Shown: positions 13,948 to 60,897 of the stretch, piece by piece | Layout of the letters: each line of letters opens with the position of its first letter | How positions within the stretch are numbered: the stretch's first letter is position 1 | Assembly (NCBI GenBank): GCA_001787405.1 | Contig: MFWV01000011.1 | Location: forward strand, 48,857-112,856 | Direction: 5' to 3' | DNA from: Candidatus Pacebacteria bacterium RIFOXYA1_FULL_38_18 | GTDB lineage: Bacteria > Patescibacteriota > Microgenomatia > UBA1400 > PJMF01 | Length of the DNA stretch: 64,000 bases | Translations under genes and position numbers: made by a program | The notes under the pieces: model-generated | Seen by the model: the letters and a program-made list of their open reading frames with translations, nothing else | Told to the model about the DNA's origin: nothing | Databases searched by the model: none

Positions 13948-14388
13948 TTAAAGTGGCCACTGAGTCTCGGGCCCAGGGATTCTGAATTTTAAAATAGTTT
14001 TTACCCCTGTAAAATCACTGATTAGATTGAGAATAATAAAGGCAGACAGTGCTACCACTAGGCCGATTACTGCAGAAGTGATTGATTTTTGGGCTTTTTC
14101 TACGTTTTGACTATTTCCACCAGATAGCAAAATATTAAAGGCAGCCACAACGACCATGATAAAGGAAACTATTCCTACTAAAGTTAAAAAAGTAGCCAAG
14201 ACATTGGCCAATAAACATTGAAAACCTTGGATAGTGGCTACCGAGCTATCATTTTCACTCACACACACTCCACTCCAAGAACTGGTTTGGGCTAGAGCAG
14301 GGGAGGCGCTAGCTAAAAAACCAAGCAAGGCAGAGCCGATGACCGCTATTTTCCGATTAATATTTTTCATATAAGCGTAATTATACAT
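13948..14388 (-). CDS. small secreted two-TM protein, VirB2/TrbC-like (T4SS pilin-like), paralog 1 of 7
   Basis: The signal peptide is better from Met7 (MKNINRKIAVIGSALLGFLASASPALA). Two hydrophobic helices flank a GGNSQNVEKAQKSITSAVIGL loop motif. It shares the family motif with the next six genes. Confidence 0.6.
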   Translation of the reverse strand: MYNYAYMKNINRKIAVIGSALLGFLASASPALAQTSSWSGVCVSENDSSVATIQGFQCLLANVLATFLTLVGIVSFIMVVVAAFNILLSGGNSQNVEKAQKSITSAVIGLVVALSAFIILNLISDFTGVKTILKFRIPGPETQWPL

Positions 14389-14445
14389 ACAAAATCGAGA
14401 TAAAAAAATCTATTCAAAGCTGGACGGTTTGGTTTTTTTAAAAAA

Positions 14446-14480
14446 TAAAAAAAAGAAGCCCTCGCACGTTAGTGAGAAGG
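14446..14480 (-). terminator. rho-independent terminator downstream of pilin-like paralog 2
   Basis: On the minus strand AGAAGCC...GGCTTCT forms a 7-bp stem followed by CTTCTTTTTTTTATTTTTT. Confidence 0.5.
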
Positions 14481-14503
14481 CTTCTGAATTTCAATTAATT
14501 TAA

Positions 14504-14902
14504 TTAACCATTGATGGTTCTAGTTTCCAGCACTTCATTTAGGTCTTTGAAGCCCAAGAAGTTCAAGGCTAAAGTAAGAATGGCATAAGAAGCAGCCACT
14601 ACGATCAAGCCGATTATCGCTGAGGTAATTTTGTTTCTAGCACTTTCGGTTTTACCTTTATCACCTCCGCTAGTAATCCATTCAATACCTCCCCAAATGA
14701 GATAGAGAAAGACCATTAAGGCTGCTAACACCATAACAAAACTCAAAATACCATTTAACAACTTACCAAAATCAGTGGCGAAACCCTGACCTGGGGTAAC
14801 TTGAGTTTTGGCGATATCCACAGCTCCAGCTGGGACTACGGCAGCAACCAAGCTGGCAATGGACACACTGGTTGACAGAGTGAATTTTTGAAATTTATTC
14901 AT
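14504..14902 (-). CDS. VirB2/TrbC-like pilin-like protein, paralog 2 of 7
   Basis: Sec signal peptide (…AAVVPAGA|VD), TM1, loop WITSGGDKGKTESARNKITSAIIGLIVV, TM2. Confidence 0.65.
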   Translation of the reverse strand: MNKFQKFTLSTSVSIASLVAAVVPAGAVDIAKTQVTPGQGFATDFGKLLNGILSFVMVLAALMVFLYLIWGGIEWITSGGDKGKTESARNKITSAIIGLIVVAASYAILTLALNFLGFKDLNEVLETRTING

Positions 14903-15025
14903 GATTCTCCTTTTATTAATTTCTAAATTTTTTTACCCTAAAACAAGATTGCTGATCATTATACTCATATCTTGCCATAAACGTCAAAACATTATCAGTT
15001 CGCTTTTTCCAGTCAATCTCGAATT

Positions 15026-15367
15026 TTAACAAGTTCCTCCAAAATCAAGTATGCAGATATTTAAAAATTTTTGCAACAAAATAAAGAGTGCGGTGGTAGA
15101 AGCCAGTACGATTAAACCAATTAACGCTTGAGTAATTTTATTTCTAGAACTTTCTAGTTTGCTTTTATCACCCTCACTAGTGATCCATCCCAAGGCGCCT
15201 AGCAAAAGATAAATAAAAGCGACCAACACTGCCACCACCATGATTGCGCTCATTAGCGTACTCATAAAACCACCAAAACCACCTTTGACACTAGAACCAG
15301 GCAGATTGGCTTGATCAGCAGCACCGCTTAGATTGATGGTAGTCTGTTGGGCGATTAAATTATTCAT
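15026..15367 (-). CDS. VirB2/TrbC-like pilin-like protein, paralog 3 of 7 (no obvious signal peptide)
   Basis: WITSEGDKSKLESSRNKITQALIGLIVL lies between two TM helices. The N-terminus MNNLIAQQ resembles paralog 7. Confidence 0.6.
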   Translation of the reverse strand: MNNLIAQQTTINLSGAADQANLPGSSVKGGFGGFMSTLMSAIMVVAVLVAFIYLLLGALGWITSEGDKSKLESSRNKITQALIGLIVLASTTALFILLQKFLNICILDFGGTC

Positions 15368-15372
15368 GTTTT

Positions 15373-15792
15373 TTAATTCAAAGCACTAGGAATAGTTATT
15401 TTCAAAATATTAAAACTTTCACCAAAAAATAGGTCGCTAATGAAACTTAAAATGACGAAAGAACCAACTAAAATAATCAAACCAATAATTGCTTGCATGA
15501 TGCGATTTCTGGCTTTTTCCAGTTTACCCTTTTCACCCTCACTAGTAATCCACTCAAAAGCTCCCAAGATAAAGAATACCAAGACCGTGATTGCTCCAAT
15601 GCCAATAATGGCGCTCCAAAGAGTTACGAAATAATTGGCAAAAGTAACTCCGCTAGCTGCTCCTTCAGCGTCATTACCCAGCGCTCCCTCGACTACTGGA
15701 TTGGTTAATTGAGCAAAAGCGGGAGAAGCTGTTGCCAGTGTAAAAACACTCAGGGTTGATAGAGCGCTGCCGATTTTGATTATTTTTTTCAT
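15373..15792 (-). CDS. VirB2/TrbC-like pilin-like protein, paralog 4 of 7
   Basis: Signal peptide …ASPAFA|Q. Loop motif EWITSEGEKGKLEKARNRIMQAIIGLIIL between two TMs. Confidence 0.65.
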   Translation of the reverse strand: MKKIIKIGSALSTLSVFTLATASPAFAQLTNPVVEGALGNDAEGAASGVTFANYFVTLWSAIIGIGAITVLVFFILGAFEWITSEGEKGKLEKARNRIMQAIIGLIILVGSFVILSFISDLFFGESFNILKITIPSALN

Positions 15793-16208
15793 AATCCTCC
15801 TGAAACTGGGGCAATAATATTTTGAATTTGTTCGGCAGGATTCAAGAAATCAAAGCCCAATAGACTGCCCAACAACCCAATAATGCTGTATGAAGCGATG
15901 ATGATAATCATACCCAGTGCTCCATGTACCATTTGATTCCTAGCTTTTTCCAGTTTGCCCTTATCTCCCTCACTAGAAATCCATTGAAAGGCACCAATGA
16001 CAAACTGCACCACAAAAAACAACGCACCCAAAGCAGTTAAAAAGCCAATTATATTGGAAACAAAAAGTTCTAGATTGGTTAATGCTCCAGTACCAACATC
16101 TGATCCTTCACTATAAGCATCAGTGGGGGGAGTAAAACCACCTAGAGGAACATCTTCAGTAGCACCTTTACCTGCTTGAGTGATTAATGAAAAAAAACTA
16201 AATAGCAT
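15789..16208 (-). CDS. VirB2/TrbC-like pilin-like protein, paralog 5 of 7
   Basis: Loop motif QWISSEGDKGKLEKARNQMVHGALGMII between two TMs. Overlaps paralog 4 by 4 nt. Confidence 0.6.
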   Translation of the reverse strand: MLFSFFSLITQAGKGATEDVPLGGFTPPTDAYSEGSDVGTGALTNLELFVSNIIGFLTALGALFFVVQFVIGAFQWISSEGDKGKLEKARNQMVHGALGMIIIIASYSIIGLLGSLLGFDFLNPAEQIQNIIAPVSGGL

Positions 16209-16220
16209 AATTTGGACTCC

Positions 16221-16712
16221 TTACGAAACTCCTCGCAATGTAGGATTGATAATGTAAGTAGCATCACCAAAGAAAATCAGACCGATGATTGCAGCAATGG
16301 TATAGGCCCCCACAATCAAGCCAAGACCAACCAGACTATTAGTCATCATGGAGGAAGCTTGAGTAACACCCTTGCTGTCTCCAGAAGAAATAATGTATTG
16401 CCAGCCAGCCAAGATAAAATTGATCAGCACCCAAACTCCAGCAGCTACGGTGGCTAGACGAATGAGATTGGAAATAAAAGTAATAAGACCAATTCCGCCC
16501 TCACCTTCGGCGTTATAACGATCTACACCCGCTGGGGCTTCGATAGTACCAAAAATACTAGTTTCATCACTAGTTTTAGGATTAGTGGGAGTAATTTGAC
16601 CTACGGCAATTACTGAATTGGTAAAGCCACCCAGAAAAATTCCCAGGACAATTGTGAGAGAAAGAAAAAACTTGGTTAGTTGGTTGGTCAAACTAGATTT
16701 CATTTTCATCAT
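16221..16712 (-). CDS. VirB2/TrbC-like pilin-like protein, paralog 6 of 7 (longer N-region)
   Basis: Signal peptide, then a roughly 70-aa hydrophilic region, then TM1, loop QYIISSGDSKGVTQASSMMTNSLVGLGLIV and TM2. Confidence 0.55.
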   Translation of the reverse strand: MMKMKSSLTNQLTKFFLSLTIVLGIFLGGFTNSVIAVGQITPTNPKTSDETSIFGTIEAPAGVDRYNAEGEGGIGLITFISNLIRLATVAAGVWVLINFILAGWQYIISSGDSKGVTQASSMMTNSLVGLGLIVGAYTIAAIIGLIFFGDATYIINPTLRGVS

Positions 16713-16731
16713 GATTGTAGTATAGCTTTCT

Positions 16732-17067
16732 CTACAAAGGAATATCTGCTCCCGTGATTACTTTGATAATTTGTAAAATCCAATAGGCAGCAAACATGAT
16801 AACTAGACCAGCCACCATAGTGCTGGCGATTTTTTGGGCTTCTTGTAAACCTTTTTCTCCTTGAGCAATGAATTTATAACCGATCACAATAATAAGGACC
16901 ATGATCACTACGCCAGCAATAACGAAGAGATTTGGTACTATCAAATTGACTAAATCAGCAGGGGTGCTAAAGACTTCGCTAACAGGTTTCCCTCCTTGTA
17001 AAATATAGGATGATCCAAGATCTAAATCTCCTTCACCGGTGTTTTGAGCAATGAGTAGATCCAGCAT
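16732..17067 (-). CDS. VirB2/TrbC-like pilin-like protein, paralog 7 of 7 (divergent, no signal peptide)
   Basis: Two TMs flank KFIAQGEKGLQEAQKIASTMVAGLVIMF. First gene of the array, divergent from the sigma-factor gene. Confidence 0.5.
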   Translation of the reverse strand: MLDLLIAQNTGEGDLDLGSSYILQGGKPVSEVFSTPADLVNLIVPNLFVIAGVVIMVLIIVIGYKFIAQGEKGLQEAQKIASTMVAGLVIMFAAYWILQIIKVITGADIPL

Positions 17068-28883: not shown

Positions 28884-29780
28884 GTGACTGATACTGCCCA
28901 ATCCACTACTGGCTTGGTTCGTCGTTTAGTTAATGATCCCAATTCAACTATTGGAGCAATGATTAAACGAGGCTCTTTAGGAGTTTCTTCTGGAAGTCTG
29001 ATTAATGGGATTAGTCAGCCACTTGTGATGGTTAATAGCTCAAGCGATCAATCTACCGATCTTACGAAGAAAAAATCAACTAGAGAATTGGATTTTTTAG
29101 AGCAAGCTATTAATGAAGCAAAAACTGCAATGTCATCCATTCAATCAACTCAACCAATTAATTCTGATTTTCAGTCAACGCCCCAACCTACTCAGGCTCA
29201 AAACTCGGATGATTTTTCTTCAAATCCTCAACCCGCAAGAGCTCAGTCGTTAACCGATCAAACTCAAAACTCTCGGAATTCTTGGGCTTCAAAAACGCAA
29301 CCTTCAAACACAGTAGCAGAGGGAGTGATGTCTCAAGCCATGCCTCAAGCTATTAATCAAGCAATTGATGATGCCGGTCAACAACAAACGTCGGTGACTG
29401 GTAAAAAAGAGGCCATAGAAAATGTTGGTTTGGATCAAGTTGCCATTGATGCTGCTCGTGGGGCGCAGTTGGTGGAAACAGAACCACAACCAGAGATTCC
29501 ACCAGAAGTAGAAAGTTATTTAGAAAAAGTGGAGGAGCGCAAAGAAACTGCGCCCCAAGAAATAGTCATTGCCGATGGAACTCAAGCCTCACCAAACAAT
29601 CGTTCTTATCCAGCTCAACCCGTAGTGGTTTTACCCATTACTGCAGCAGAAGAAAAAGAAGGAATCAAAAAAAGCCCTAAATTTAGCATTCGTTGGTTGG
29701 TAGAATGGAGCAAGAAGCTAATGAAGATCTTTATGGGAAAAGTAATTTATAGACCAGTAGAGGAGAAGATAGACCAGTAG
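28884..29780 (+). CDS. hypothetical S/Q/T-rich protein
   Basis: 298 aa, mostly low complexity. Sits upstream of the membrane ATPase, possibly co-transcribed. Confidence 0.45.
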   Translation: MTDTAQSTTGLVRRLVNDPNSTIGAMIKRGSLGVSSGSLINGISQPLVMVNSSSDQSTDLTKKKSTRELDFLEQAINEAKTAMSSIQSTQPINSDFQSTPQPTQAQNSDDFSSNPQPARAQSLTDQTQNSRNSWASKTQPSNTVAEGVMSQAMPQAINQAIDDAGQQQTSVTGKKEAIENVGLDQVAIDAARGAQLVETEPQPEIPPEVESYLEKVEERKETAPQEIVIADGTQASPNNRSYPAQPVVVLPITAAEEKEGIKKSPKFSIRWLVEWSKKLMKIFMGKVIYRPVEEKIDQ

Positions 29781-29793
29781 AGGAGAAGAAAGT

Positions 29794-32133
29794 TTGATGT
29801 TTATAGAATCTGATAGTTTTGTCACCAGTGTTTCTATGTTTTTCATCAATCTCTTTTTATGGATAGGAATTATTGGTTTAGTACTTATTTTGGCTTATTT
29901 ATTTTTACAATGGTTTAAACATCGCAAACGCGAAGTCTATTCTCTGGACTTTGTAACACTACTAGTTCGTCTTCCCAAAGACAATGAAGTAAAGATTGAT
30001 GCTGCCGAACAAATGTTTGCCGGACTTTATTCTCTCAAAAATGATGGAATTTTCTCTTTCTTAAAACCAGAAGAAATCATTAGTTTTGAGATAGTGGGCC
30101 TCAAAGAAGAAATTGCTTTTTATGTTAGTTGTCCCAGAAAAATTAGAGATTTAGTAGAAAAACAAATTCATGGAGCATATCCCTTTGCTGATATCAAAGA
30201 AACTGATGAGGTAAATATTTTTAGCGAAAAAGGGCGAGTAGCTTTTTCTTCATTGAAACTTAAAGAAGGTCACTCTTTACCTTTAAAGACTTACAAAGAT
30301 TTACCAACAGACGGCTTGTCATTGATTACTTCTGCTTTTTCCAAAATGGGAGAAGGAGATGGTGCGATCTTGCAAATCTTGATCAGACCGGAAGGCAATC
30401 GTTGGCAGAAAAAAGGCAGAAACTACATCAAAAACGAAAAAAAACGAGAAGCTGATCCTCAAAAAGCAACTTATGGCCATGATCCAAAAGAAATGGAAGC
30501 AGTAACAACCAAAGTTGAAAAACCAGGCTTCAGAACCTCAATCAGAGTAGTGGTATCTTCAGCTCATGAATCAATAGCCCACTCACATTTAAATAACATT
30601 GACGGTGCTTTTTCTCAATTTGCTTCTACCTATAACCAACTCACTCATTCTCGTTTTTACATCAAACATCTTTTTATGATTGATTTTATTTATCGTTATA
30701 TGCCGTTATTTAATATAGGTACTTCAATTTTGAATACCGAAGAGTTAGCCACTGTTTTTCACTTTCCCAATAAAACTGTGGAGACTCATCACATCAAGTG
30801 GCTACAAGCCAAAAACGCACCAGCCCCGCATCAAATTCCCAATGAGGGACTCTTTTTGGGCAAATCTCTTTATCGTGGAGAAATACGAGATGTGCACATG
30901 AAGCTGAAAGATCGTCAACGCCACATGTACATCATTGGAAAAACTGGTACCGGTAAATCTGAGTTTTTGAAAGAAATGATCATGCAGGACATTATTAAAG
31001 GAGAAGGAGTTTGTGCCATTGATCCGCATGGTGAGTTTGTAGAAGATATTTTGCAATTAATGCCACCAGAACGGGCAGAAGATGTCATCTATTTCAACCC
31101 ATCAGATCTAGATCGGCCGATGGGTTTGAATATGATGGAAGCAGATTTTGAGGAACAAAAGCATTTTGTGGTGAGTTCCATTATTGGTTTAATGTACAAA
31201 TTATATGATCCGCATCGCACTGGTATCATCGGTCCGCGATTTGAGCATGCCATCAGAAACGCTATGTTGACAATCATGTCTAGAGAAGGTTCTACTTTTA
31301 TTGAGCTAGTTCGGGCCCTAACAGATCAAAAATTTGTTGAAGAGCTCTTGCCTTATGTTAAAGATCCGGTAGTAAAACGATATTGGACTGATCAGATTGC
31401 TCAAACCAGTGATTTCCATAAGTCAGAAGTGCTTGACTACATTGTGTCCAAATTTGGCCGTTTTGTGACCAATAAAACGATGAGAAACATCATTGGCCAG
31501 CCCAAGAGCTCTTTTAATTTCCGCAAAGCAATGGACGAGAAAAAAATTATTTTATGCAACCTTTCCAAAGGCATCTTGGGTGAGGAAGATGCCAAGTTTC
31601 TTGGTTTGATTCTAGTGCCAAAAGTCCTAACTGCTGCTATGAGCAGACAAGATGTGCCGATGGATCAGCGAACTGATTTTTTTCTCTATGTGGACGAGTT
31701 TCAAAACTATGCTACCGAGGATTTTGCCACCATTCTTTCAGAGGCTAGAAAATACAAACTCAATTTGATTGTAGCCAATCAGTTTATTGGTCAGATTGAT
31801 GAGGAAGTCAAAAACGCGGTGTTTGGTAATGTTGGCACCATTATTTCTTTCCGCATTGGCGTAACAGATGCCAATTTCCTACAACATGAATTTACTCCAG
31901 TTTTTAACGAAACAGACTTGGTTAATGTAGAAAAGTATCACGTTTACATTAAAACCATTGTCAACAATGAGCCAGTATCAGCTTTCAGCATGTCATTGGA
32001 AAAAGACATGGACGCCATCAAAGCCCAAATGAATCCCAAGTTGGCAGAAATGATCAAACAGCTTTCCCGCTTAAAATATGGTAAAGAGAGATCCGTAGTT
32101 GAGGCAGAAATTTCCATTAGAGCAAGATTATAA
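29794..32133 (+). CDS. membrane-anchored P-loop ATPase of the FtsK/HerA/VirB4/VirD4 (TraG-like) superfamily
   Basis: 779 aa. N-terminal TM helices. Walker A IIGKTGTGKSEF. DPHGE motif. Walker B FFLYVDEFQNY. ARKYKLNLIVANQ arginine-finger/Q region. Confidence 0.6.
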   Translation: MMFIESDSFVTSVSMFFINLFLWIGIIGLVLILAYLFLQWFKHRKREVYSLDFVTLLVRLPKDNEVKIDAAEQMFAGLYSLKNDGIFSFLKPEEIISFEIVGLKEEIAFYVSCPRKIRDLVEKQIHGAYPFADIKETDEVNIFSEKGRVAFSSLKLKEGHSLPLKTYKDLPTDGLSLITSAFSKMGEGDGAILQILIRPEGNRWQKKGRNYIKNEKKREADPQKATYGHDPKEMEAVTTKVEKPGFRTSIRVVVSSAHESIAHSHLNNIDGAFSQFASTYNQLTHSRFYIKHLFMIDFIYRYMPLFNIGTSILNTEELATVFHFPNKTVETHHIKWLQAKNAPAPHQIPNEGLFLGKSLYRGEIRDVHMKLKDRQRHMYIIGKTGTGKSEFLKEMIMQDIIKGEGVCAIDPHGEFVEDILQLMPPERAEDVIYFNPSDLDRPMGLNMMEADFEEQKHFVVSSIIGLMYKLYDPHRTGIIGPRFEHAIRNAMLTIMSREGSTFIELVRALTDQKFVEELLPYVKDPVVKRYWTDQIAQTSDFHKSEVLDYIVSKFGRFVTNKTMRNIIGQPKSSFNFRKAMDEKKIILCNLSKGILGEEDAKFLGLILVPKVLTAAMSRQDVPMDQRTDFFLYVDEFQNYATEDFATILSEARKYKLNLIVANQFIGQIDEEVKNAVFGNVGTIISFRIGVTDANFLQHEFTPVFNETDLVNVEKYHVYIKTIVNNEPVSAFSMSLEKDMDAIKAQMNPKLAEMIKQLSRLKYGKERSVVEAEISIRARL

Positions 32134-32317: not shown

Positions 32318-33184
32318 ATGAGCATAAACTCAACTTCTCTGGGAAAAATTATTCTTACGGGGGAGCATAGTGTAGTTTATGGTTACCCCGCTTTGGCCAT
32401 ACCTACCAAATTAGCCACTCATGTAAAGGTTTGGAAAAAACGAGAGGGAAGATCTACCAAACAGTCACTTCCTCTCAAAGTTGTTCAAGTTATTGACGTC
32501 ATAGGTGAGCATTTTCCAGAACTTGATTTAGGTTTATCTTTTCAGATTTTTTCTTCATTGCCACAAAATTCAGGCCTCGGTTCCTCTGCAGCGCTGGCTC
32601 ATGCTCTTGTAAAAGCTATTGCTGGATATTATCACCGCCAATTAACAAAAGAACAGCTTTTTCAGATTGTTCAAAAATGTGAAAAAATTTTTCATGGAAA
32701 ACCCAGTGGAATTGATGCTGCTACTGTAGTTTATGAAACCTGTCTGCGTTTTATAAGGTCTAAAGATCAAGTTACCATTAAAAAACTTGATTGTCTGAAA
32801 ACGATTCCACCCTTTCTTTTACTTGACTCTGGAAAGGCCACCGAAACAACAAAAGCAATGATAAAAATTGCCAGCGGCAATCCAGCAAAGAAAAGCATTT
32901 TAAAACAAATAGGCGCAATTACTCAAAAAATCGAGAATCTTTTACAAGATGAAAAATTTTCTCCAGAACTTATTACAGAGAATGAAAGATTGCTGGAGAA
33001 ATTGGGCGTGGTTGGTAAAAAAGCCACTCTCATCATTCGTGCTATCGAAGAATTTGGAGGTTTTGCAAAAATTACTGGAGCAGGGGGAGTGGCGAGTGGT
33101 TCTGGCGTCATTATTGCTTTTCACAAAGACATCCAGAAATTAAAGAATTATTGTAAAATCAAACGATTTCACTCATTCAATTAA
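32318..33184 (+). CDS. mvk: GHMP kinase, mevalonate kinase-like
   Basis: 288 aa. N-terminal GKIILTGEHSVVYGYPALAIP (MK signature). GHMP motif PQNSGLGSSAA. Glycine-rich GAGGVASGSG. Confidence 0.75.
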   Translation: MSINSTSLGKIILTGEHSVVYGYPALAIPTKLATHVKVWKKREGRSTKQSLPLKVVQVIDVIGEHFPELDLGLSFQIFSSLPQNSGLGSSAALAHALVKAIAGYYHRQLTKEQLFQIVQKCEKIFHGKPSGIDAATVVYETCLRFIRSKDQVTIKKLDCLKTIPPFLLLDSGKATETTKAMIKIASGNPAKKSILKQIGAITQKIENLLQDEKFSPELITENERLLEKLGVVGKKATLIIRAIEEFGGFAKITGAGGVASGSGVIIAFHKDIQKLKNYCKIKRFHSFN

Positions 33185-33222
33185 ATAGAAGCTAAAATTA
33201 AAATGGCAAAAGAAAATAATTT

Positions 33223-34206
33223 ATGAATAAGATTCAAGCCTCTGCTCCAGGAAAATTAATGTTGTTTGGTGAGCATGCGGTGGTGTACGGACATCCGTGT
33301 ATTGTTACTGCCGTTGATCAGCGCATTTTTGTAGAAGTTCAAAAAAAAGATAATCATTCTTTTTCTGTTGTAGCGCCCGAAGTAGGAGTGGACAAATATA
33401 CCAAAAGTTTGATTGAAATTGGAAAGGCAACTATTCCCAGATCTGTTGTTTTCCTAGAGAAATTATATAAAAAATTTATTGAAAAATATTCTGTTGGTGG
33501 CGGAATTCAAGTCACGACTAGAAGTGAGTTTTCTGCAAAATTTGGTTTTGGCTCAAGCAGTGCCGTTACAGTGGCTTTTGCAAAAGCTTTGACAAAATTG
33601 TTCGCGATTGAGTTATCAAAGAAAGAATTATTTGACCTTTGCTATCAAACCGTTATTGATGTGCAAGGAGTTGGATCAGGGTTTGATTTGGCTTCAGCAA
33701 TATGGGGTGGCACTATCTATTATATTAAACCTGCAAAAATAGTAGAGCAACTTTCTGAAAAAGAAATTCCCATCAGCGTGGCATACACCGGCATTAAAGC
33801 CGATACTACAAGTCTGGTAAAAATGGTTGCGGAAGAAAAGGCCAATAATGCAGACAAGATCAATGAGATTTTTGAGCAAATAACCATTATTACTAAATTG
33901 GCAAAAACGGCAATATTGGCAAGTGATTGGCCACAGGTGGGGAACCTTATGACTCAAAATCAATTGTTGTTGGCAGAATTGGGAGTGAGTAGCACAGAGC
34001 TGGATTCGCTCATCTCAGTCTCATTGTTATCAGGAGCATATGGAGCAAAATTATCTGGTGCTGGTGGAGGTGATTGTATGATTGCTCTAGCCGATCAGAA
34101 AATCAAGAAAAAAATGGAGATAGAGCTTGAAAATGTTGGCGGTCAGGTGCTACAGGTGCATACCGGCGCTGATGCAGTAAGATTGGAAACAGAAAGCAAA
34201 AAATGA
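33223..34206 (+). CDS. second GHMP kinase (phosphomevalonate kinase or MK paralog; assignment unresolved)
   Basis: 327 aa. SAPGKLMLFGEHAVVYGHP (MK-type GEHAVV, not ERG8-type GEYAV). FGFGSSSA. KLSGAGGGDCMIAL. Confidence 0.7.
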   Translation: MNKIQASAPGKLMLFGEHAVVYGHPCIVTAVDQRIFVEVQKKDNHSFSVVAPEVGVDKYTKSLIEIGKATIPRSVVFLEKLYKKFIEKYSVGGGIQVTTRSEFSAKFGFGSSSAVTVAFAKALTKLFAIELSKKELFDLCYQTVIDVQGVGSGFDLASAIWGGTIYYIKPAKIVEQLSEKEIPISVAYTGIKADTTSLVKMVAEEKANNADKINEIFEQITIITKLAKTAILASDWPQVGNLMTQNQLLLAELGVSSTELDSLISVSLLSGAYGAKLSGAGGGDCMIALADQKIKKKMEIELENVGGQVLQVHTGADAVRLETESKK

Positions 34207-35183
34207 AGAAACAAACAGTACTAGCTCATTCTGATGTAGCGCTAATTAAATACTGGGGTAAAAAAGACGTAGCAACTCAACTTCCAGAAAATAGCAGTGT
34301 CTCAGTTGCTCTAAATGGATTGGATACCATCACAACTGTAGAGTTTGACGATAAATTATTGGCAGACGACATTGTTATCCAAGGCAGTAGAGAAGCCAAA
34401 GAAGTAGAGCGAGTAGTTTTACATTTGGAAAGAATTAGAAACTTAGCCCAAATTAAAACATACGCAAAAGTTGTATCAAAAAACACCTTTCCCAAAGCAA
34501 CTGGGCTTTCTAGTTCTGGTTCTGGGTTTGCTGCTCTGACTTTGGCTGCAATTGGTGCTCTTGAACTGAAACTTTCCCCCAAAGAAATAAGTATTCTTGC
34601 TAGAAAAGCCTCTGGTACAGCTTGTCGTTGTGTGATGGGTGGTTTTATTAAGTGGCTCGCTGGAGATACATCAAGTTCTTCTTATTCAAAAACAATTTTT
34701 GATGAAAATTATTGGGATATTAGAGATGTAATTGCCATTGTTGATTTTGATAAGAAAAAAGTATCTTCTTCTGAAGGTCATTTATCAGCGCACTCAAGTC
34801 CGTTTTATCAAGTTCGCTTACAGCGAATTCCCAGTAAAATTAAAAAAATTAAACAATATATAAACGATAAAGATTTTTCATCCTTTGGCAAACTAATCGA
34901 ATCAGAAGCTTTGGAATTTCACTCAATTCTTCTGACAAGTAAACCCCCACTCATCGCTTGGTATCCTGGCACTATTGCGGTGATGAATCTTGTACAAGAA
35001 ATGCGAAAACAGGGTATTGAGGCATATTTCACCATCAATACGGGCTTTAATGTTCATATATTAACACTTCCTCAATTTGTAGATGAAGTTCAGAAGAGAG
35101 TTTCAAGTTTGTCATTTGTTCGTGATGTTATGAAAGCAACCGTGGGGGGTTTTCCCCAAAAATTGGATACCCACTTATTTTAA
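34203..35183 (+). CDS. mvaD: diphosphomevalonate decarboxylase family (MVD, or phosphomevalonate decarboxylase)
   Basis: 326 aa. ALIKYWGKKD, TGLSSSGSGFAAL and the GHMP fold. Overlaps the upstream gene by 4 nt. Confidence 0.85.
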   Translation: MKKQTVLAHSDVALIKYWGKKDVATQLPENSSVSVALNGLDTITTVEFDDKLLADDIVIQGSREAKEVERVVLHLERIRNLAQIKTYAKVVSKNTFPKATGLSSSGSGFAALTLAAIGALELKLSPKEISILARKASGTACRCVMGGFIKWLAGDTSSSSYSKTIFDENYWDIRDVIAIVDFDKKKVSSSEGHLSAHSSPFYQVRLQRIPSKIKKIKQYINDKDFSSFGKLIESEALEFHSILLTSKPPLIAWYPGTIAVMNLVQEMRKQGIEAYFTINTGFNVHILTLPQFVDEVQKRVSSLSFVRDVMKATVGGFPQKLDTHLF

Positions 35184-38620: not shown

Positions 38621-38649
38621 GAGCAGCTATTCTATCAAATTATTGCAAG

Positions 38650-38723
38650 TGCGTGCGCTAGGACTCGAACCTAGAACCACCAAGGTATAAGCTTGGTGCT
38701 CTGACCAATTGAGCTACGCACGC
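38650..38723 (-). tRNA. tRNA-Ile, anticodon UAU (reads AUA)
   Basis: Hand-folded cloverleaf. Acceptor GCGTGCG/CGCACGC. D-stem GCTC/GAGC. Anticodon stem CCAAG/CTTGG with loop CTTATAC. T-stem CTAGG/CCTAG with loop TTCGAGT. No encoded CCA. Confidence 0.75.
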
Positions 38724-41644: not shown

Positions 41645-42757
41645 TTATGAACTAGAGAGGTGTAAAGAAGAAGTTATGGTTTGATATTTATTTCTGATAT
41701 TTATGAATATTGCTGCGAAAAAAAATGCCATAATCCGCGGTCTTATGAGGCGAACCAAAGAAGAATCATTTTTAATAATTAATTTGAGAATATTTAGTCT
41801 GATAAGAATTTTTTTAATTTTTGGTTCATATTTTTTAAGATGCCAAAACTTCAAAGGAGGAAACTCAGCGAACCACTCGATTGGCAATAAATGAGCCAAT
41901 ATGAGAATTTTCCAAGATGTATTTTTACTAATAAAACTTGGAGTTGAGTATCTAAAGAAACAATTGCTCAAAATTATCATCAACCAGGCCTCATTTTGAA
42001 ACTGATATTGTTTTGCTAATTGTAAAAAATTAGACCATTGACTTGGTTTTTTATAGGTTTGAGTTAATTTTCCGATTTCATAAAGCGTGCCCAGACCCGT
42101 TGCTAAATCATTGAATAAAAAACGAATGCACAAAGACAGTAATTGATAGTTTTTATTTTGAATGTGGTGATTGTGTTTTGTGTTGTTCAATAGTGCTGTG
42201 GAAAATTTCCGCACAATTAGGATCTCTTGCGCATTGAGAGTGCCAAAATGTGGATGTGCAATCATGCTATGAATATCAAGATTTAAATAACGAGCCTTAG
42301 AATAAGTAATTTCTTTGGGCGGATAAATGGTTTTTTTATAACCCTGATTGGTTAACCATTGATCAATAATCATCATGCCCTGCTTGTTGGTAAGCAAATC
42401 AAGATCATTAGTAAGAAATAATTGCTGATTTAGTTTGTTTTTAAAATCCTTAAAAAAAATACCTTTTATTTTTGTTTTCTCCAAAAAAGAAATTAGACGT
42501 TGTTTTTCTTTTTCATATAACAAGCTGGAAAAAATGCTATTTTTTTGATGTTTGATTAGTTTGTTTTTAAAAGATTTATTCAAATGTTTTTGACAATTTT
42601 GACAGTTTGTAAAGTGATCTAAGGCATGGAAAACTTTATTAAACATTGCTTTTTCATAGAGTTTGCTAGTGCTTTTTTTAACTAAATTGATTGGAGGACA
42701 AACAGAGGAATTGTTTTGCAATAAAAAAACCAAGATTTCTATATCGGCATTTAACAT
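41645..42757 (-). CDS. uncharacterised nucleotidyltransferase (pol-beta superfamily, NTP_transf_5-like)
   Basis: 370 aa. hhxDhDhh metal-binding motif TNDLDLLTN. Size and composition fit the PF14907-type family often found in peptide-modification clusters. No HMM was run. Confidence 0.45.
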   Translation of the reverse strand: MLNADIEILVFLLQNNSSVCPPINLVKKSTSKLYEKAMFNKVFHALDHFTNCQNCQKHLNKSFKNKLIKHQKNSIFSSLLYEKEKQRLISFLEKTKIKGIFFKDFKNKLNQQLFLTNDLDLLTNKQGMMIIDQWLTNQGYKKTIYPPKEITYSKARYLNLDIHSMIAHPHFGTLNAQEILIVRKFSTALLNNTKHNHHIQNKNYQLLSLCIRFLFNDLATGLGTLYEIGKLTQTYKKPSQWSNFLQLAKQYQFQNEAWLMIILSNCFFRYSTPSFISKNTSWKILILAHLLPIEWFAEFPPLKFWHLKKYEPKIKKILIRLNILKLIIKNDSSLVRLIRPRIMAFFFAAIFINIRNKYQTITSSLHLSSS

Positions 42758-42760
42758 AGA

Positions 42761-43702
42761 GTGATTATAATCGTTGTTATGATATCTGTTTTGATTGCTA
42801 CTAAAGAACGGCCAGATTCATTACTTGTGTGTCTTCAATCAATTGTCTCCAATCAATTCACTCAGTACGAAGTGATTGTTATTGATCAGAGCAATGTTGT
42901 CAGTGCGCTAATCAAACAATATCTTAAAAAGCATCATCGCATACATTTTTATCATCTGCCAAATAGGGGTAGGGAGAGGGGCAAAAGTTATGCCCTACAA
43001 CAAGGATTGATGAAAGCAAAAGGAGAAATCATTGCTTTTACAGACGATGACTGCATAGTGGATAAAAAATGGTTAAAGATTCTTTGGCAAGGTTTTGCCC
43101 AAAACAAATGTGATGGTCTATTTGGTCAGGTTTTACCATATCAGCCAGCTCAACATGCTGATGAAACTTGCCCCTGTACAATGCGTTTTGCAAAAAAAGA
43201 ATTTGTTCGTCAACCGCGCTACCATGTTTCCATTGGTTACGGCAATAACATGGCTTTTAGAAAGCAAGCTCTTGATGAGATTGGTTCACCAAAAACCTGG
43301 CTCGGTCCCGGATCAATTGGTTCGAATGCGGAAGATGCGGAGCTTACCCTACGGGCATTATTTGCCAAAAAAATTATTTTGAGATATCCAAAATCTATTG
43401 TTTATCACAATCGTTGGTTGAATGCTCAAGAAATGAAAGAACAGCAACTCTCTTACACTCAAGGAGAAGCGGCTTGTTATGGCTATTTTTCCTTTCTTGG
43501 ATCAAATTTTTGCAAACAAATATTAATTAGAGGAATCAAAGCCAATCTTCAGAATTTAAAACGCAATCTATTGTCAGTTTTTAGTTTTAACAAAGGTAAG
43601 CGGACGCGAAACAACGTTTATTGGAATTTTCGATCATTACTAGCTAGTGCACGAGGATTGAGTGTAGGATTTTGGTTTTTTTTAACAGAGTCTTTAAAAT
43701 AG
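42761..43702 (+). CDS. soluble glycosyltransferase family 2
   Basis: VLIATKERPDSLLVCLQSI, VIDQSN and AFTDDDC are GT-A motifs. No TM. Confidence 0.7.
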   Translation: MIIIVVMISVLIATKERPDSLLVCLQSIVSNQFTQYEVIVIDQSNVVSALIKQYLKKHHRIHFYHLPNRGRERGKSYALQQGLMKAKGEIIAFTDDDCIVDKKWLKILWQGFAQNKCDGLFGQVLPYQPAQHADETCPCTMRFAKKEFVRQPRYHVSIGYGNNMAFRKQALDEIGSPKTWLGPGSIGSNAEDAELTLRALFAKKIILRYPKSIVYHNRWLNAQEMKEQQLSYTQGEAACYGYFSFLGSNFCKQILIRGIKANLQNLKRNLLSVFSFNKGKRTRNNVYWNFRSLLASARGLSVGFWFFLTESLK

Positions 43703-43703
43703 T

Positions 43704-44699
43704 TTGATTAAAATTATGTCAATATCAGCTTCAATTATTATTCCAACCAAAGAGAGATTTGAAACTCTCCAGCATTGTTTATTGGCTACAATTAAACAAT
43801 TATCCAAAGAGGACGAAGTAATGGTGGTAGAAAATGGTCAAGCTTATCAAAAAACTAAACACTTAATTAATATTTTAGCCAAAAATCACCAAATAAGTTA
43901 TGTTCATGAATCACGACTTGGACCAGCTTTTGCTCGCAATAAAGGAATTAGTTTGGCTCGCAATGAAATCTTGATTTTTTTGGATGATGATTGTGTGCCT
44001 GGTCCGGGCTGGTTGAAAGCAATTAAAAAGCGTCATGAAAATGAAAAAAAACACCAGCAAACAGTGGTTTTTCAGGGAAAAATTAATTATGTTTATAAAA
44101 AATCGAATGCATTTGTTGAGTTATTTCATTTAAGAAATCGGATGGATTGGCAAGTAATTCGGAAAACTCCGGGATGGAAAATGGGGAAATTCATAAATTT
44201 TTTAAATGCTGGAATTTTTTCTGTTCGAAGGTCGGTTTTAGTTAAAAATAAGATTAAATTTAATGAACTTTTTTTTCCTTTTGTTGGTGAAGAGAGAGAT
44301 CTGACAGCGCAATTACATTTGCATGGTATTTCCATTGTTTATGCATCGGAAATACAAGTAACACATTACAAAGATAGAGGAAGCGTAGTGAATTCATTAA
44401 AAAGATCTTTTCAGGCGGGATTGGCACAAGAAATACTGAACGTTTTATATAAAACCAATCAATCAACAAAATCTTTGTTTAAGAAATCTTTTCGAAAAGA
44501 AAAAAATGGAATAATCGCTGAATTGTTAAAACAATTTAATCAGCAGTCACTATTTACCATTACAGGTATGATCATTACTTATTTGCGATTGAGTATGTTG
44601 GTCCTGGGAAGAGTTTATGGCAAATTTTGGTGTCTGTTGCAAAAAAACAAGCTTTATGAACATAGAAAAAAGCTATTTTTATCAATCACTAAGAACTAA
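43704..44699 (+). CDS. soluble glycosyltransferase family 2
   Basis: SIIIPTKERFETLQHCL and IFLDDDCVPGPGWL match the GT-A fold. No TM. One nt after the previous GT2 stop. Confidence 0.7.
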   Translation: MIKIMSISASIIIPTKERFETLQHCLLATIKQLSKEDEVMVVENGQAYQKTKHLINILAKNHQISYVHESRLGPAFARNKGISLARNEILIFLDDDCVPGPGWLKAIKKRHENEKKHQQTVVFQGKINYVYKKSNAFVELFHLRNRMDWQVIRKTPGWKMGKFINFLNAGIFSVRRSVLVKNKIKFNELFFPFVGEERDLTAQLHLHGISIVYASEIQVTHYKDRGSVVNSLKRSFQAGLAQEILNVLYKTNQSTKSLFKKSFRKEKNGIIAELLKQFNQQSLFTITGMIITYLRLSMLVLGRVYGKFWCLLQKNKLYEHRKKLFLSITKN

Positions 44700-45168
44700 T
44701 AAGCTTGCGATATAGATGTTTTAAAAAAGGATATTTATAAAGATTTTTTATTTTTAATAAATTTGGAAAATGGTGATTCAGTCGTGAATACCAAGTCAGA
44801 ATAAAAACAAAAAACCGCGAGCGATTATTTTCCAAAAAGATAGTATGCGAAGGATATATGATTTTTATAGCTTTTCCCATGAGTTTTTTAATATCAACCT
44901 GGTTATCATAATCTAATTTATTATCGCCCTTGGTAATAACATATTTTTTTTTAATAGCCATTAAGCGATGAAGAATTATTTGATTGTTTTTTTTAAAAGC
45001 TACAATATCGCCAACCGTATATTCTTGAGAATAATTAAGTTTTAAAACAACTTTTGCACCATGTTTAATTAAGGGTTCCATGCTATAACCCTTGCTAGTG
45101 GTTTGTATAATAAGCGAATGTTTATTAGTAATGAATTGAGTAATTAATGAAACATTTTTCATTGTCAT
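44689..45168 (-). CDS. S26-family signal-peptidase-like serine protease (Ser/His SipW/ER-type), no obvious TM
   Basis: GYSMEP (nucleophile Ser). ILHRL (His replaces the Lys of the KR box). KGDNKLDYDNQ (GDNxxxSxDSR-like). Start ambiguous; the ORF track gives 45234. Confidence 0.5.
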   Translation of the reverse strand: MTMKNVSLITQFITNKHSLIIQTTSKGYSMEPLIKHGAKVVLKLNYSQEYTVGDIVAFKKNNQIILHRLMAIKKKYVITKGDNKLDYDNQVDIKKLMGKAIKIIYPSHTIFLENNRSRFFVFILTWYSRLNHHFPNLLKIKNLYKYPFLKHLYRKLISS

Positions 45169-45185
45169 TGTGCATTGCTGATTTG

Positions 45186-46334
45186 ATGATTTTACTATAC
45201 ACGAACACAAATCAAGAGCATGATTTTTTGGCAAACAAATATGAGGACTATATAGTAACGGACAGTCAAGAAAAAACTGCAGTAGTATCTATTGCTTGCG
45301 GTTTTGAACATCGTGAGAAAGAAATTCCCAGCTTTGTTTTTAAAGAAAGTGTAATAGAGAGGTTTGGTTTATTTAGTGAGTTTTTCCGCAAAATATTAAT
45401 GGGAGTATTAAATACTCATGATGGAGCTTTATTGCATGCCAGTTCTATTGTTTATAAAAATCAGGGCTTTATTTTTATTGGTCATGAAGGAGCAGGCAAA
45501 ACAACTATTCGCAAATTACTAAATAACTACGTTTCTTTGGGCGATGATACAGCTATTATACGAATTAGAGGGGAAAAGACTTATCTATATGGTTCTCCAC
45601 TTTATCAACGAACTAAGCGTTCTTATCCGAATAAACGAGTTTTGATCTGTGGTATTTTTTCTTTAAAACAAGCAAAATATGCTCTAATTAATGATCTTGA
45701 TCTCAATCAGCAAGTGAAAGCGCTGTCGTCAAATGTTTTTTTATCTGGCTTAAAAGAATTTAACAATGAAAATAGAAAATTAAGTTTGACATTATTTACT
45801 TTGGGACAGCAACAACTTGTTCATAATTTATCTTTTGCCAAAACATCCCCAGTATCAAAAGTACTAAAAATATTTGCTCAAAAACCCTGGCAAAAAAAAT
45901 CAATCAAGAACCTATTGGTTCAAGCCAGCACTGTCTTTGTTCAAGAACTCCAAGATCATGTTGTTTGGTCGAAGGGTGTTGCCGATCGCGACTTTTTAAC
46001 TCAATGTTTGATAATTAATGAACATAGTTGGATTTTTGAATTCGGTTCACAGCGAATTTTGAAAGTAATAGCAGATAAAATTATTGGAAATCAAGAAGAG
46101 GCTTATCATCATTCTCTTGTGTTTAAAAAAATTAAACAATTCAAAGAAATCAAGGTTTTGCCTACGATAGTTGTTGTTCGAAAAGAAAATAATTTTGTAA
46201 TTATTGATGGCAATCATCGGGCATTGGCTTGGTATTTGCATAATAAAAATAATTTAACTGGAGAAATTTTGGTGTTAGTAGGAGATTTAAAAAATAATTT
46301 TAAAGAAAATAGTAAAATTTTTGCTTATTTATAA
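45186..46334 (+). CDS. HPr-kinase-like P-loop kinase fused to a C-terminal ParB/Srx-like domain
   Basis: GFIFIGHEGAGKTTIRKLL...LGDD fits the HprK C-domain pattern GxxGxGKS/T...hhDD. C-terminal VIIDGNHRALAWYL is ParB-like. Start ambiguous; the ORF track gives 45147. Confidence 0.5.
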   Translation: MILLYTNTNQEHDFLANKYEDYIVTDSQEKTAVVSIACGFEHREKEIPSFVFKESVIERFGLFSEFFRKILMGVLNTHDGALLHASSIVYKNQGFIFIGHEGAGKTTIRKLLNNYVSLGDDTAIIRIRGEKTYLYGSPLYQRTKRSYPNKRVLICGIFSLKQAKYALINDLDLNQQVKALSSNVFLSGLKEFNNENRKLSLTLFTLGQQQLVHNLSFAKTSPVSKVLKIFAQKPWQKKSIKNLLVQASTVFVQELQDHVVWSKGVADRDFLTQCLIINEHSWIFEFGSQRILKVIADKIIGNQEEAYHHSLVFKKIKQFKEIKVLPTIVVVRKENNFVIIDGNHRALAWYLHNKNNLTGEILVLVGDLKNNFKENSKIFAYL

Positions 46335-46369
46335 TTTTTGATTTTTTATAAAACTAATTAAGGTTGAAC

Positions 46370-46915
46370 AATTATTTTCAAAAACTACCGAACAACGTCG
46401 ATTGTTGGGAGTTTGGGCACATCCAGATGACGAATCACTCAATATAGAAGAAATTTTGGCTCTAGCAAACAAAGCTAAAATAAATACGCAAATAATTTGT
46501 CTTATGGAGAAATGGGCTTATCTCAAAATAGTGCCTTAGGGACTCGAGGGCGAGATGGGAAATCTGGCAAGAAAGCGATCGGTCGTGGAAGCTTTATTTT
46601 AGCGTTCTGGAACAGGACATAAAACGTCTTTATAAACATTCCAGAAAACTAACGATTTGGAAAAATATGCTAAAAGCAGATTTTCAAATAAGTATTACCA
46701 AAACAACTGATCAAAAAATAACGGCCTGTTTAGCTCACGTCAGCCAGTTGTCAGTTCTCAACAAACCAATCCCATTAAAAATAATTTTTAAAATGTTTGA
46801 TAATGAGTATTTACATCTAGTAACTGCACAAAACAAATATAATTTTCAATTTGTGAATTTTTTCACTCAAAGGTATAATTATCGTGTCAAAAACAAAACC
46901 GAAGGCTTTTCATAA
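46370..46915 (+). pseudogene. decayed LmbE/PIG-L-family deacetylase gene (no start codon, frameshift)
   Basis: Hand translation of 46378.. gives EQRRLLGVWAHPDDESLNIEEILALANKAKINTQIICLMEKW, with the PIG-L AHPDDE motif, ending in a stop. The reading frame of ORF 46667..46915 continues it after a frame change. Confidence 0.4.
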
Positions 46916-46931
46916 TAAAAAGGAATATTTT

Positions 46932-47216
46932 ATGGCTAAAAAATTTGACGATAATACTATGATAAAAAGAATGCAGGGCATTGTTTATAAAGAAGTTGAA
47001 GGGGTGTTTTATATTTTGAACTATCAAACAGTAACATTGCACACACTCAATGAAACAGCTAGCTTTGTCTGGAAAGAATTGGCCAAACCCAAAACTATTA
47101 AACAATTAACTGAAACGATCGTTGATAATTTTTCAACAACGAAAACTCAAGCAAAACAAGATCTTGAAAAATTCATTATCAAGTATAAAAAACTTGGCTT
47201 TCTTGAACTGATATAG
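46932..47216 (+). CDS. PqqD-family protein (RiPP recognition element-type peptide chaperone)
   Basis: 94 aa from MAKKFDDN with RBS AAGGAA 8 nt upstream. LNETASFVWKEL, LTETIVDNF and AKQDLEKFIIKYKKLGFLEL match the PqqD/RRE consensus. Confidence 0.65.
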   Translation: MAKKFDDNTMIKRMQGIVYKEVEGVFYILNYQTVTLHTLNETASFVWKELAKPKTIKQLTETIVDNFSTTKTQAKQDLEKFIIKYKKLGFLELI

Positions 47217-47242
47217 TTATCAAATAAAAATTAAAAAATTAT

Positions 47243-47341
47243 TTACTGGTATGATTCCAGAGTAAAAACATCTATTTCAATTTTTTCAACTTTTTCCGCT
47301 GGAGCCTTGTAGGCTTTTTTGGTTTTTTGGTTTTTGTTCAT
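47243..47341 (-). CDS. candidate 32-aa peptide (possible modified-peptide precursor)
   Basis: AGGAGA is 4 nt upstream of the ATG on the minus strand. Product MNKNQKTKKAYKAPAEKVEKIEIDVFTLESYQ. Convergent on pqqD-like; 50 nt downstream of the previous minus-strand gene. Confidence 0.4.
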   Translation of the reverse strand: MNKNQKTKKAYKAPAEKVEKIEIDVFTLESYQ

Positions 47342-47393
47342 AAAATCTCCTATTTTTATTTGGTATTTTATTACTTGATAAAGTATTTCATTT

Positions 47394-48317: not shown

Positions 48318-48362
48318 TGTAATGATCGTATAAAATTGACTAAAATCTGCTTTGACAAATTA

Positions 48363-49858: not shown

Positions 49859-49871
49859 CCAATTTCCTTTT

Positions 49872-53329: not shown

Positions 53330-53350
53330 AATAATTTTTTTTAAAATTTC

Positions 53351-54019: not shown

Positions 54020-54024
54020 CTAAT

Positions 54025-60765: not shown

Positions 60766-60897
60766 TTATTTATTAAATAGCAGTTTTCGCATTTTTGCAT
60801 CATTAAATTTTTTCAATGAATAAAATATGAAATTTTTTTGAGTGGGTTTTTTAATTGGGTAAGATGAAAAATAATGGCTGCACTACCACGTATTTCA

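Follow-up and report, generated by a model that had tools for sequence, protein, structure and literature searches.

What does an ATPase of the conjugation type do in a bacterial chromosome when it is encoded among housekeeping genes? The question is raised by a gene pair in a stretch of 64,000 nucleotides (nt), here called the window, from the ultrasmall Candidatus Pacebacteria bacterium RIFOXYA1_FULL_38_18 (contig MFWV01000011.1, positions 48,857 to 112,856). A gene for a 298-amino-acid (aa) protein, referred to as the partner (28884..29780, + strand), is followed there by the gene of a DUF8128-containing ATPase of 778 aa (29797..32133, +), which resembles type IV coupling proteins (T4CPs). 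The analyses presented below lead us to regard this ATPase, with moderate confidence, as the coupling ATPase, unlinked and working without a relaxase, that serves the essential type IV secretion system (T4SS) of Patescibacteria (candidate phyla radiation, CPR). If the link to the T4SS holds, the gene would be a candidate for the energising and substrate-selecting component of an essential T4SS, and the pair a defined two-gene module.

Gene models and architecture of the ATPase

Both open reading frames (ORFs) proposed in an earlier note on this DNA exist in the window: the partner ORF, which begins with GTG, and the ATPase ORF, which had been called from a TTG at 29794 to 32133 (+, 779 aa). 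Since close homologues of the ATPase begin with M-F-(L/I)-E, the ATG at 29797 is probably the start, yielding the 778-aa version to which all residue numbers refer. Searches returned 6800 matches for the ATPase at E ≤ 1e-5 and 220 matches for the partner, and these many homologues of both proteins indicate that the ORFs are real genes and did not arise by chance.

The ATPase retains an intact set of motifs, namely Walker A GKTGTGKS (381-388), DPHGE, Walker B FFLYVDEFQNY and RKYKLNLIVANQ, and every motif quoted in the earlier note was recovered. Instead of the several N-terminal transmembrane (TM) helices that had been claimed, a single one was found at residues ~13-38 (29833..29910, +) by Kyte-Doolittle hydropathy, modelled by AlphaFold2 (AF2) as a helix of residues 5-50. 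It is followed by KHRKRE, and according to the positive-inside rule the bulk of the ATPase is therefore predicted to be cytoplasmic, giving a putative topology of one TM anchor with the remainder inside the cell. The next region, at residues ~50-345 (29944..30831, +), is an N-terminal alpha/beta domain that ends in a nearly invariant FHFP...W motif and corresponds to Pfam PF26449 (DUF8128), for which precomputed matches cover this domain in ATPase homologues of 76-92% identity. A RecA-like ATPase domain of the VirB4/VirD4/HerA class occupies 30832..32130 (+), with Walker A at 30937-30960 and Walker B at 31675-31701.

The AF2 model based on the family alignment had a mean predicted local distance difference test (pLDDT) score of 85.8 and comprised the TM helix, the alpha/beta domain (pLDDT mostly 85-94) and the RecA-like domain, with an all-helical insert of residues ~451-620 (31147-31656) between Walker A and Walker B. 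An equivalent helical bundle is present in the C-terminal domain (CTD) of VirB4, so the insert does not separate T4CPs from VirB4. A profile of the N-terminal domain gave only chance matches against PDB sequences (E > 1), and hhalign comparisons of the same profile with the VirB4-like, TraC-like, PrgI-like and 321-aa proteins of the genome gave no signal, the probability for the VirB4-like protein being below 1%.

Family assignment

Pfam analysis revealed two matches above cutoff, both restricted to the surroundings of the P-loop: the DUF87/HerA P-loop region (38.6 bits vs a cutoff of 23.2; residues 355-459 only) and PF10412, TrwB_AAD_bind (32.1 vs 20.5; residues 366-440 only). Scores for PF12696 (TraG-D_C; 20.5 vs 22), AAA_10 (16.6 vs 27.5) and FtsK_SpoIIIE (PF01580) were below their cutoffs, and neither PF03135 nor PF02534 matched the window ATPase; parcubacterial orthologues do match PF02534 and PF12696. 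The best NCBIfam matches were all to conjugative coupling proteins (SXT TraD, CD1115 VirD4-like, CedD and TrbC) and all far below cutoff, with 30-49 bits for the TraD, CD1115 and TrbC models against cutoffs of 250-800. When the sequence was compared with PDB, TrwB ranked first and DotL next, while HerA and VirB4 were weak; a profile of 62 family sequences likewise recovered TrwB (1e-7) and DotL (7e-6) among PDB sequences and did not find VirB4.

The superfamily named in the earlier note (FtsK/HerA/VirB4/VirD4) was thus correct and can be narrowed: the ATPase belongs to the VirB4/VirD4/HerA branch, outside FtsK proper and HerA proper, and as far as sequence comparison goes its nearest relatives are coupling proteins. 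Three specific identities were rejected. For VirB4, AAA_10 remained below cutoff, PF03135 was missing and a separate 705-aa VirB4-like protein is encoded beside dnaA, the likeness being limited to the CTD fold. For FtsK/SpoIIIE, the N-terminus of four TM helices, the alpha/beta/gamma domains and a PF01580 score above cutoff were not found. For HerA, DUF87 matched around the P-loop only, an alpha/beta N-terminal domain follows the TM helix, and no nuclease gene is a neighbour. Features expected of a T4CP were found in part: the RecA-like nucleotide-binding domain, the intact Walker A and B motifs and a TrwB-like fold are present, while one helix (13-38) was found in place of two TM helices joined by a short extracytoplasmic loop, and no relaxase gene lies in the window, virB4 being ~20 kb off.

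Relatives on plasmids and in phages

Searches of plasmids and phages with tblastn revealed homologues that are colinear with the window ATPase over query residues ~54-772, including the N-terminal domain, at 20-26% identity. On a 27.5-kb plasmid of Bacillus subtilis (NZ_CP154917), an 885-aa 'DUF87 domain-containing protein' (WP_345805471; BLASTP E 1e-56, query 71-749, 25% identity) is encoded by the first gene of a conjugation operon, in which it is followed by genes for a Replic_Relax protein, a TcpC protein (VirB8-like), a VirB4-like AAA_10 ATPase and other 'conjugal transfer' proteins. This homologue has a long acidic C-terminal tail and is without both the TM helix and the small upstream ORF. 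Homologues colinear over the N-terminal domain and the ATPase domain also occur in Bacillus phage SP8 (locus L089, 4794-8331) and Bacillus phage G (gp156; locus L090, 2303-6445). In SPO1-like phages such as SP8, a Replic_Relax (PF13814) protein comes after the ATPase homologue, and in phage G gp156 comes after a VirB-like gene. The window ATPase also matched phrog_5156 with an E value of 4.6e-91.

The colinear homologues on Bacillus plasmids and in Bacillus phages show that the DUF8128-like domain extends beyond CPR. That the N-terminal domain is common to the window ATPase and to coupling-type ATPases of Firmicutes plasmids and phages is a new result of this work. The N-terminal domain and the ATPase domain together form an old coupling-type module of monoderm conjugation systems, consistent with the MPF-FATA origin proposed for the VirB4 of Patescibacteria. 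The CPR lineage is marked by a TM anchor and a small partner; its relaxase has been lost and the gene has become fixed in the chromosome.

Distribution and two paralogous clades

Among the best 120 of the 6800 ATPase matches, identity was 76-92% throughout. At 50% identity the family forms 22,344 clusters at E ≤ 1e-3 and 5,677 at E ≤ 1e-30, and a scan of one genome per species gave at least 598 loci, distributed over the Microgenomates orders, Dojkabacteria, WWE3, Saccharibacteria, Berkelbacteria, Doudnabacteria, Falkowbacteria and other Parcubacteria. As an orthologue in a catalogued family with at least 598 species-level copies, the window ATPase is unremarkable; Quinonero-Coronel et al. 2025 (PMC12102498) recorded 5,713 T4CP homologues in 2,918 of 3,035 Patescibacteria genomes. 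Many of the contigs of loci L007-L085 are titled 'uncultured Gammaproteobacteria/Pseudomonadales', 'Bathyarchaeia', 'Limisphaerales' or 'Methylomirabilota' and clearly carry Patescibacteria genes, so that these are unreliable labels of metagenome-assembled genomes (MAGs) and not occurrences outside CPR.

A tblastn search of the fetched loci revealed a second full-length paralogue of 975-1073 aa, located 2-3 kb downstream of the first gene, in three genomes labelled as Saccharibacteria or Berkelbacteria (L070, 13135-17299; L073, 12817-17193; L077, 14470-18551). These paralogues, designated clade B, scored 1150-1430 bits among themselves and 440-530 bits against all others by BLASTP. In a neighbour-joining tree of 42 sequences (739 columns, 100 bootstraps), clade B was split with 100% bootstrap support from clade A, which holds 39 sequences, including the window ATPase and that of the Saccharibacteria MAG L072. 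Branching inside clade A roughly tracks CPR taxonomy, so that clade A is a vertically inherited orthologous group. The window protein has the characters of this clade, namely the TM helix, DUF8128, the T4CP-like ATPase domain and the position in the tree, and its gene is preceded by a small co-directional gene at a gap of 13 nt. Every clade-B gene is preceded by a gene for a 346-aa Sigma70_r4+HARE-HTH protein, and in clade-B proteins PF10412 extends across residues 405-701.

Some relatives of 1,400-1,500 aa (P0187, P0195 and similar) carry ~1,000 aa of TPR repeats in place of DUF8128 before the same ATPase domain, and others of 1,700-2,000 aa have ~1,000 aa of extra, unannotated C-terminal sequence. 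Pfam scans of these long relatives (1,200-2,000 aa) gave only TPR N-termini or unannotated extensions and no functional clue.

Probable correspondence with essential genes of Southlakia epibionticum

In Southlakia epibionticum, the only relative amenable to genetic work, two T4CP-like genes, SEML1_0142 and SEML1_0293, are listed in Tables S1 and S2 of Wang et al. 2023 (PMC10633639). In the transposon sequencing (Tn-seq) of that study, SEML1_0142 (1019 aa) was essential at all three time points (ES/ES/ES), and SEML1_0141 (139 aa), which lies 12 nt upstream of it, had 0 insertions after selection and was scored essential; SEML1_0293 (921 aa) was non-essential and is preceded by SEML1_0294, which encodes a Sigma70_r4+HARE-HTH protein (PMC10633639). 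The T4SS and pilin genes of Southlakia, the latter a six-pilin array, were all essential, and its T4SS cluster has no recognisable coupling protein (PMC10633639). The T4SS of Patescibacteria is the first reported to be essential for its owner.

In L072, the clade-A gene encodes 1027 aa, and a 146-aa ORF overlaps its start. The neighbours agree one by one with SEML1_0138-0145 in size, strand and domain content, in the order Mg-chelatase-like protein, two small ORFs, ATPase, 194-aa protein, DUF11 protein and GyrB. The PF10412 pattern of clade B and the preceding Sigma70_r4+HARE-HTH gene are those reported for SEML1_0293. On synteny, domain pattern and the tree, we infer that clade A corresponds to the essential SEML1_0142 and clade B to the dispensable SEML1_0293. 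The split into two paralogues and the proposed tie between clade A and an essential Southlakia gene pair are new. CPR genomes with two T4CP-like paralogues, as indicated here, bear on the later comparative study, which names only one t4cp homologue in Southlakia and describes it as non-essential (Quinonero-Coronel et al. 2025, PMC12102498); that description fits SEML1_0293 only. A complete and essential FtsK is also present in Southlakia, so that clade A is not a substitute for FtsK, and a reading of the ATPase as an FtsK replacement was rejected.

The partner and the conserved upstream gene

The partner matches a protein in JGI data at 100% identity, and its 220 homologues come only from relatives within Pacebacteria and Woesebacteria; Pfam and NCBIfam searches with it returned no domain match. 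The N-terminal ~32 aa and a C-terminal module of ~120 aa are conserved, and the low-complexity middle differs in length. The middle consists of an S/Q/T/N-rich insert at residues ~33-172 (28980..29399, +), with 17% S and 14% Q. The S/Q-rich character named in the earlier note was therefore real as composition and did not hold as a conserved trait: the insert is lineage-specific and is missing from the 212-aa partner of L001, a locus whose ATPase is 92% identical to that of the window. Near the C-terminus, a VVLPIT motif, found again in upstream ORFs across Microgenomates, precedes an amphipathic helix (SPKFSIRWLVEWSKKLMKIFMGKVIYRP, 29673..29756, +; RWLVEWSKKLMKIF), which has a hydrophobic moment of 0.59 and remained helical in a low-confidence AF2 fusion model. 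A perfect 20-bp tandem duplication, ATAGACCAGTAGAGGAGAAG x2 (29749..29788), covers the final codons and stop of the partner gene as well as the Shine-Dalgarno region that serves the ATPase gene. It changes the partner in its final residues and its stop codon and doubles the Shine-Dalgarno-like GGAGAAG; neither L001 nor L006, both close relatives with a differently ending partner, has it.

Pairing of the two genes extends well beyond the window. In 46 of 68 loci, the ATPase gene is preceded by a same-strand ORF (median 153 aa) whose end lies between -30 and +35 nt from the ATPase start, and in 13 further loci one lies within 135 nt; the 13-nt spacer of the window is replaced in relatives by stop and start codons that overlap by 1-4 nt. 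The spacing and this pairing support the shared operon that had been suggested earlier. Scans for promoters and terminators gave sites no more frequent than in shuffled sequence. Iterative hidden Markov model (HMM) searches merged 28 of the upstream ORFs, from Microgenomates loci and two Dojkabacteria-type loci, into a single family. The Parcubacteria ORFs form a separate family with the motif ...WLKIIPGVNKFFxEQEAKIKTD, and those of Saccharibacteria form yet another. What the pairing demonstrably conserves is thus the position and the overall type of protein (disordered, C-terminally helical), and not the sequence. The conservation of the small upstream gene is a further result of this work; the gene stands almost always directly before the ATPase gene and encodes a fast-evolving, largely disordered protein.

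Low-complexity tails rich in Q, P, N, S and T, for example NQPTNQSVNQMAQANQPTQPINQSANQ, occur in the VirB4-like, TraC-like/TrsD and PrgI-like proteins of the same genome (L086, 4250-9883) and are similar in flavour to the S/Q-rich insert of the partner (28980-29399). This resemblance could reflect drift in composition across the lineage, or a disordered 'sticky' module common to proteins related to the T4SS.

The T4SS of the same genome and the setting of the gene pair

The window begins ~320 nt ahead of dnaA and dnaN, and the T4SS genes were read from locus L086 (contig MFWY01000010.1, GCA_001787375.1), which carries the DnaA protein of the window. Immediately before dnaA and window position 1 (L086, 4250-9883), a T4SS cluster encodes a 1212-aa M23 peptidase, the 321-aa protein, a PrgI-like protein (VirB3 type), a TraC-like/TrsD protein and the 705-aa VirB4-like protein with DUF87, AAA_10 and P-loop_TraG domains; this cluster contains no T4CP-like gene. 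Within the window, seven tandem genes for VirB2-like T4SS pilins (13948..17067, - strand; PF18895, with 4 of 7 reaching the Pfam cutoff) are located between leuS and a sigma-factor gene and are divergent in sequence. Components other than the ATPase thus exist in the genome, and for this reason the dispersed translocation apparatus suggested in the earlier note gains support from the genes beside dnaA and from the pilin array; its other half, the participation of the ATPase, is an inferred link.

The ATPase gene lies ~28 kb from dnaA in DNA of GC content 0.37-0.38, the same as in its flanks. Its neighbours are housekeeping genes (GH3 hydrolase, DUF192, mevalonate-pathway kinases, ATP-dependent DNA ligase and peptidyl-tRNA hydrolase), whose order around the ATPase gene is kept in relatives.

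Proposed role and alternative explanations

The proposal that the ATPase serves the T4SS builds on its architecture, fold class, orthologous group and vertical inheritance, on the gene pairing, on the presence of a T4SS in the genome and on the homology to conjugation ATPases. The single TM helix would tether the ATPase to the cytoplasmic face of the membrane, as predicted by the positive-inside rule, and the protein would most likely assemble into a hexameric ring, by analogy with TrwB, VirB4 and HerA, and hydrolyse ATP through the Walker A and B motifs. It may work with the relaxase-free T4SS near oriC, consisting of the VirB4-like, TrsD/TraC-like and PrgI-like proteins, the cell-wall hydrolase and the VirB2-like pilins. 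Its task there would be to recruit, unfold or energise a substrate, probably something other than a plasmid piloted by a relaxase. The upstream protein, presumably translationally coupled and mostly disordered, could serve the ATPase as adaptor, regulator or membrane tether, comparable to CagZ for Cagbeta or DotM/DotN/IcmSW for DotL. A bolder claim, which we consider unlikely when taken as a whole, is that the clade-A ATPase and its partner are the missing essential engine of a Patescibacteria T4SS-pilus for relaxase-free transfer of host- or epibiont-derived macromolecules between epibiont and host, possibly as import and not export, with the partner as a lineage-specific adaptor or threaded substrate. 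If it were true, a conjugation-derived coupling motor would have been repurposed as an obligate organ of episymbiosis.

Several results weigh against assigning the ATPase to the T4SS. The gene lies ~20 kb and roughly 37 coding sequences from virB4, and only 148 of the 5,713 published T4CP homologues are near virB4 (PMC12102498). T4CP-like genes are found in 2,918 of 3,035 genomes and VirB4 in 2,417 (96% vs 80%), so that some genomes may keep the ATPase without a T4SS, although both counts come from incomplete MAGs and pool the two paralogues. None of the NCBIfam T4CP models came near its cutoff, the fold taken by itself places the VirB4 CTD slightly above TrwB (about equal likeness), and one TM helix with a 300-aa domain is unlike the canonical N-terminus of VirD4. 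The orthology of SEML1_0142 to clade A is deduced from the synteny of L072 and the tree, not from the sequence of SEML1_0142, and a polar effect on SEML1_0142 could account for the apparent essentiality of SEML1_0141. Regarding the partner, profile-profile comparison of the Microgenomates, Parcubacteria and Saccharibacteria families of upstream ORFs found no homology between them, and an AF2 fusion of ATPase and partner run without an alignment (mean pLDDT 35.8) was uninformative on interaction.

The separation from virB4, here and in ~97% of published cases, and the wider occurrence of T4CP-like genes would also be expected if the ATPase and its partner were a CPR-specific essential membrane translocase independent of the T4SS, that is, a T4CP-derived pair exapted for moving DNA, protein or another polymer in division, envelope biogenesis or uptake from the host, and not docked on VirB4/VirB6. 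Housekeeping neighbours, vertical inheritance and the high identity among the best 120 matches, as for a core housekeeping gene, point the same way, and exaptation was raised as a possibility by the published authors (PMC12102498). Although this is the main alternative, we consider it rather unlikely: the T4SS of the lineage has no other essential candidate for a coupling ATPase, the nearest relatives outside CPR stand in conjugation operons, a true essential FtsK already fills the FtsK-like role in Southlakia, and the gene context suggests no alternative partner machinery. A motor for DNA uptake, like ComFA or the archaeal Ced ATPases, is very unlikely. Patescibacteria are naturally competent, T4SS genes adjoin comF, recG and radA in the ABY1 class, and CedD (32 bits) and CedB (20 bits) gave NCBIfam matches, which were far below cutoff; but no competence genes adjoin the ATPase gene in the window, and deletion of comEC in Southlakia abolished competence and left the cells viable, whereas the clade-A orthologue is essential. 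Competence alone, which the earlier note had kept among its options, therefore cannot explain the requirement.

The homologues on plasmids and in Bacillus phages, together with the strong match to phrog_5156, would suit a gene left behind or carried by an integrated element, conjugative or mobilisable, or by a prophage. Such an origin is highly improbable for a gene that is present in at least 598 species genomes, has the GC content of its flanks, keeps its housekeeping synteny in relatives and follows CPR taxonomy in the tree; no relaxase, integrase or repeat boundary was found nearby, and neither att sites nor patchy presence in close relatives was seen. Conjugation as the function, also suggested earlier, is likewise unlikely for a chromosomal, vertically inherited gene with no relaxase nearby. 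Scarcely credible is a role in anti-phage defence as an ATPase akin to HerA or DndH, for which PADLOC gave generic matches (mad8 at 4e-16, HerA and DndH): no nuclease, Sir2 or Dnd partner is encoded nearby, and, unlike defence islands, the gene occurs universally, is inherited vertically and seems to be essential. The defence and mobile-element explanations were rejected, the former because its HerA matches are generic only and the latter on tree and synteny. A coupling ATPase of the essential T4SS is accordingly the explanation we prefer.

Other features of the window

Directly after the ATPase gene, mevalonate/phosphomevalonate kinase genes occupy 32318-35183. In L001 (12554-19119), genes for HMG-CoA reductase, HMG-CoA synthase and thiolase stand between the ATPase and the kinase genes; the upper mevalonate genes of the window genome are therefore elsewhere or lost. 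The region 42000-62000 has a GC content of 0.28-0.35, compared with 0.37-0.40 elsewhere, and is filled with genes for glycosyltransferases, PMT_2, YdjC and a Wzy_C protein of the O-antigen-ligase type; it resembles an island for cell-surface polysaccharides and may have come in by horizontal transfer. Near oriC, between the rnpA-yidC group and rplY, 5691-8642 (+) codes for a DUF4012 protein of 983 aa, which occurs in the same place in L086. The sole tRNA gene of the 64 kb is a tRNA-Ile with anticodon TAT (38649-38723, -). In most bacteria AUA is decoded by a lysidine-modified CAT tRNA, and this tRNA-Ile(TAT) may be of interest for decoding in CPR.

Comparison with known systems

TrwB of R388, VirD4, TraD/TraG, DotL and Cagbeta have two TM helices and a short periplasmic loop, whereas the window ATPase has one helix and a 300-aa domain, predicted to be cytoplasmic. 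Unlike plasmid T4CPs, it lacks a relaxase and an acidic C-terminal tail and is unlinked to genes for DNA transfer and replication (Dtr) or mating-pair formation (Mpf), and its orthologue, assigned by synteny, is essential for growth in the published Tn-seq. The ATPases of Bacillus plasmids end in an acidic tail and are followed by Replic_Relax, VirB8-like and VirB4-like genes; the window ATPase has a TM helix and an upstream ORF instead. It differs from VirB4 (TrwK; the CTD of Thermoanaerobacter pseudethanolicus VirB4, 4ag5) in being without PF03135, and the genome has VirB4-like and TrsD/TraC-like genes of its own. With FtsK/SpoIIIE and HerA it shares the ASCE superfamily, similar Walker motifs and an expected hexameric ring.

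The T4SS and pilin genes match the published oriC-proximal T4SS of Patescibacteria with its pilin array, and the seven pilin genes of the window parallel the essential six-pilin array of Southlakia. The closest likeness is to the Patescibacteria T4CP homologues described with PF26449 and PF10412 (PMC12102498), with which the window ATPase shares architecture, clade, the small upstream gene and a chromosomal site away from virB4. Nothing essential differs between them, and the window gene is one more member of that group.

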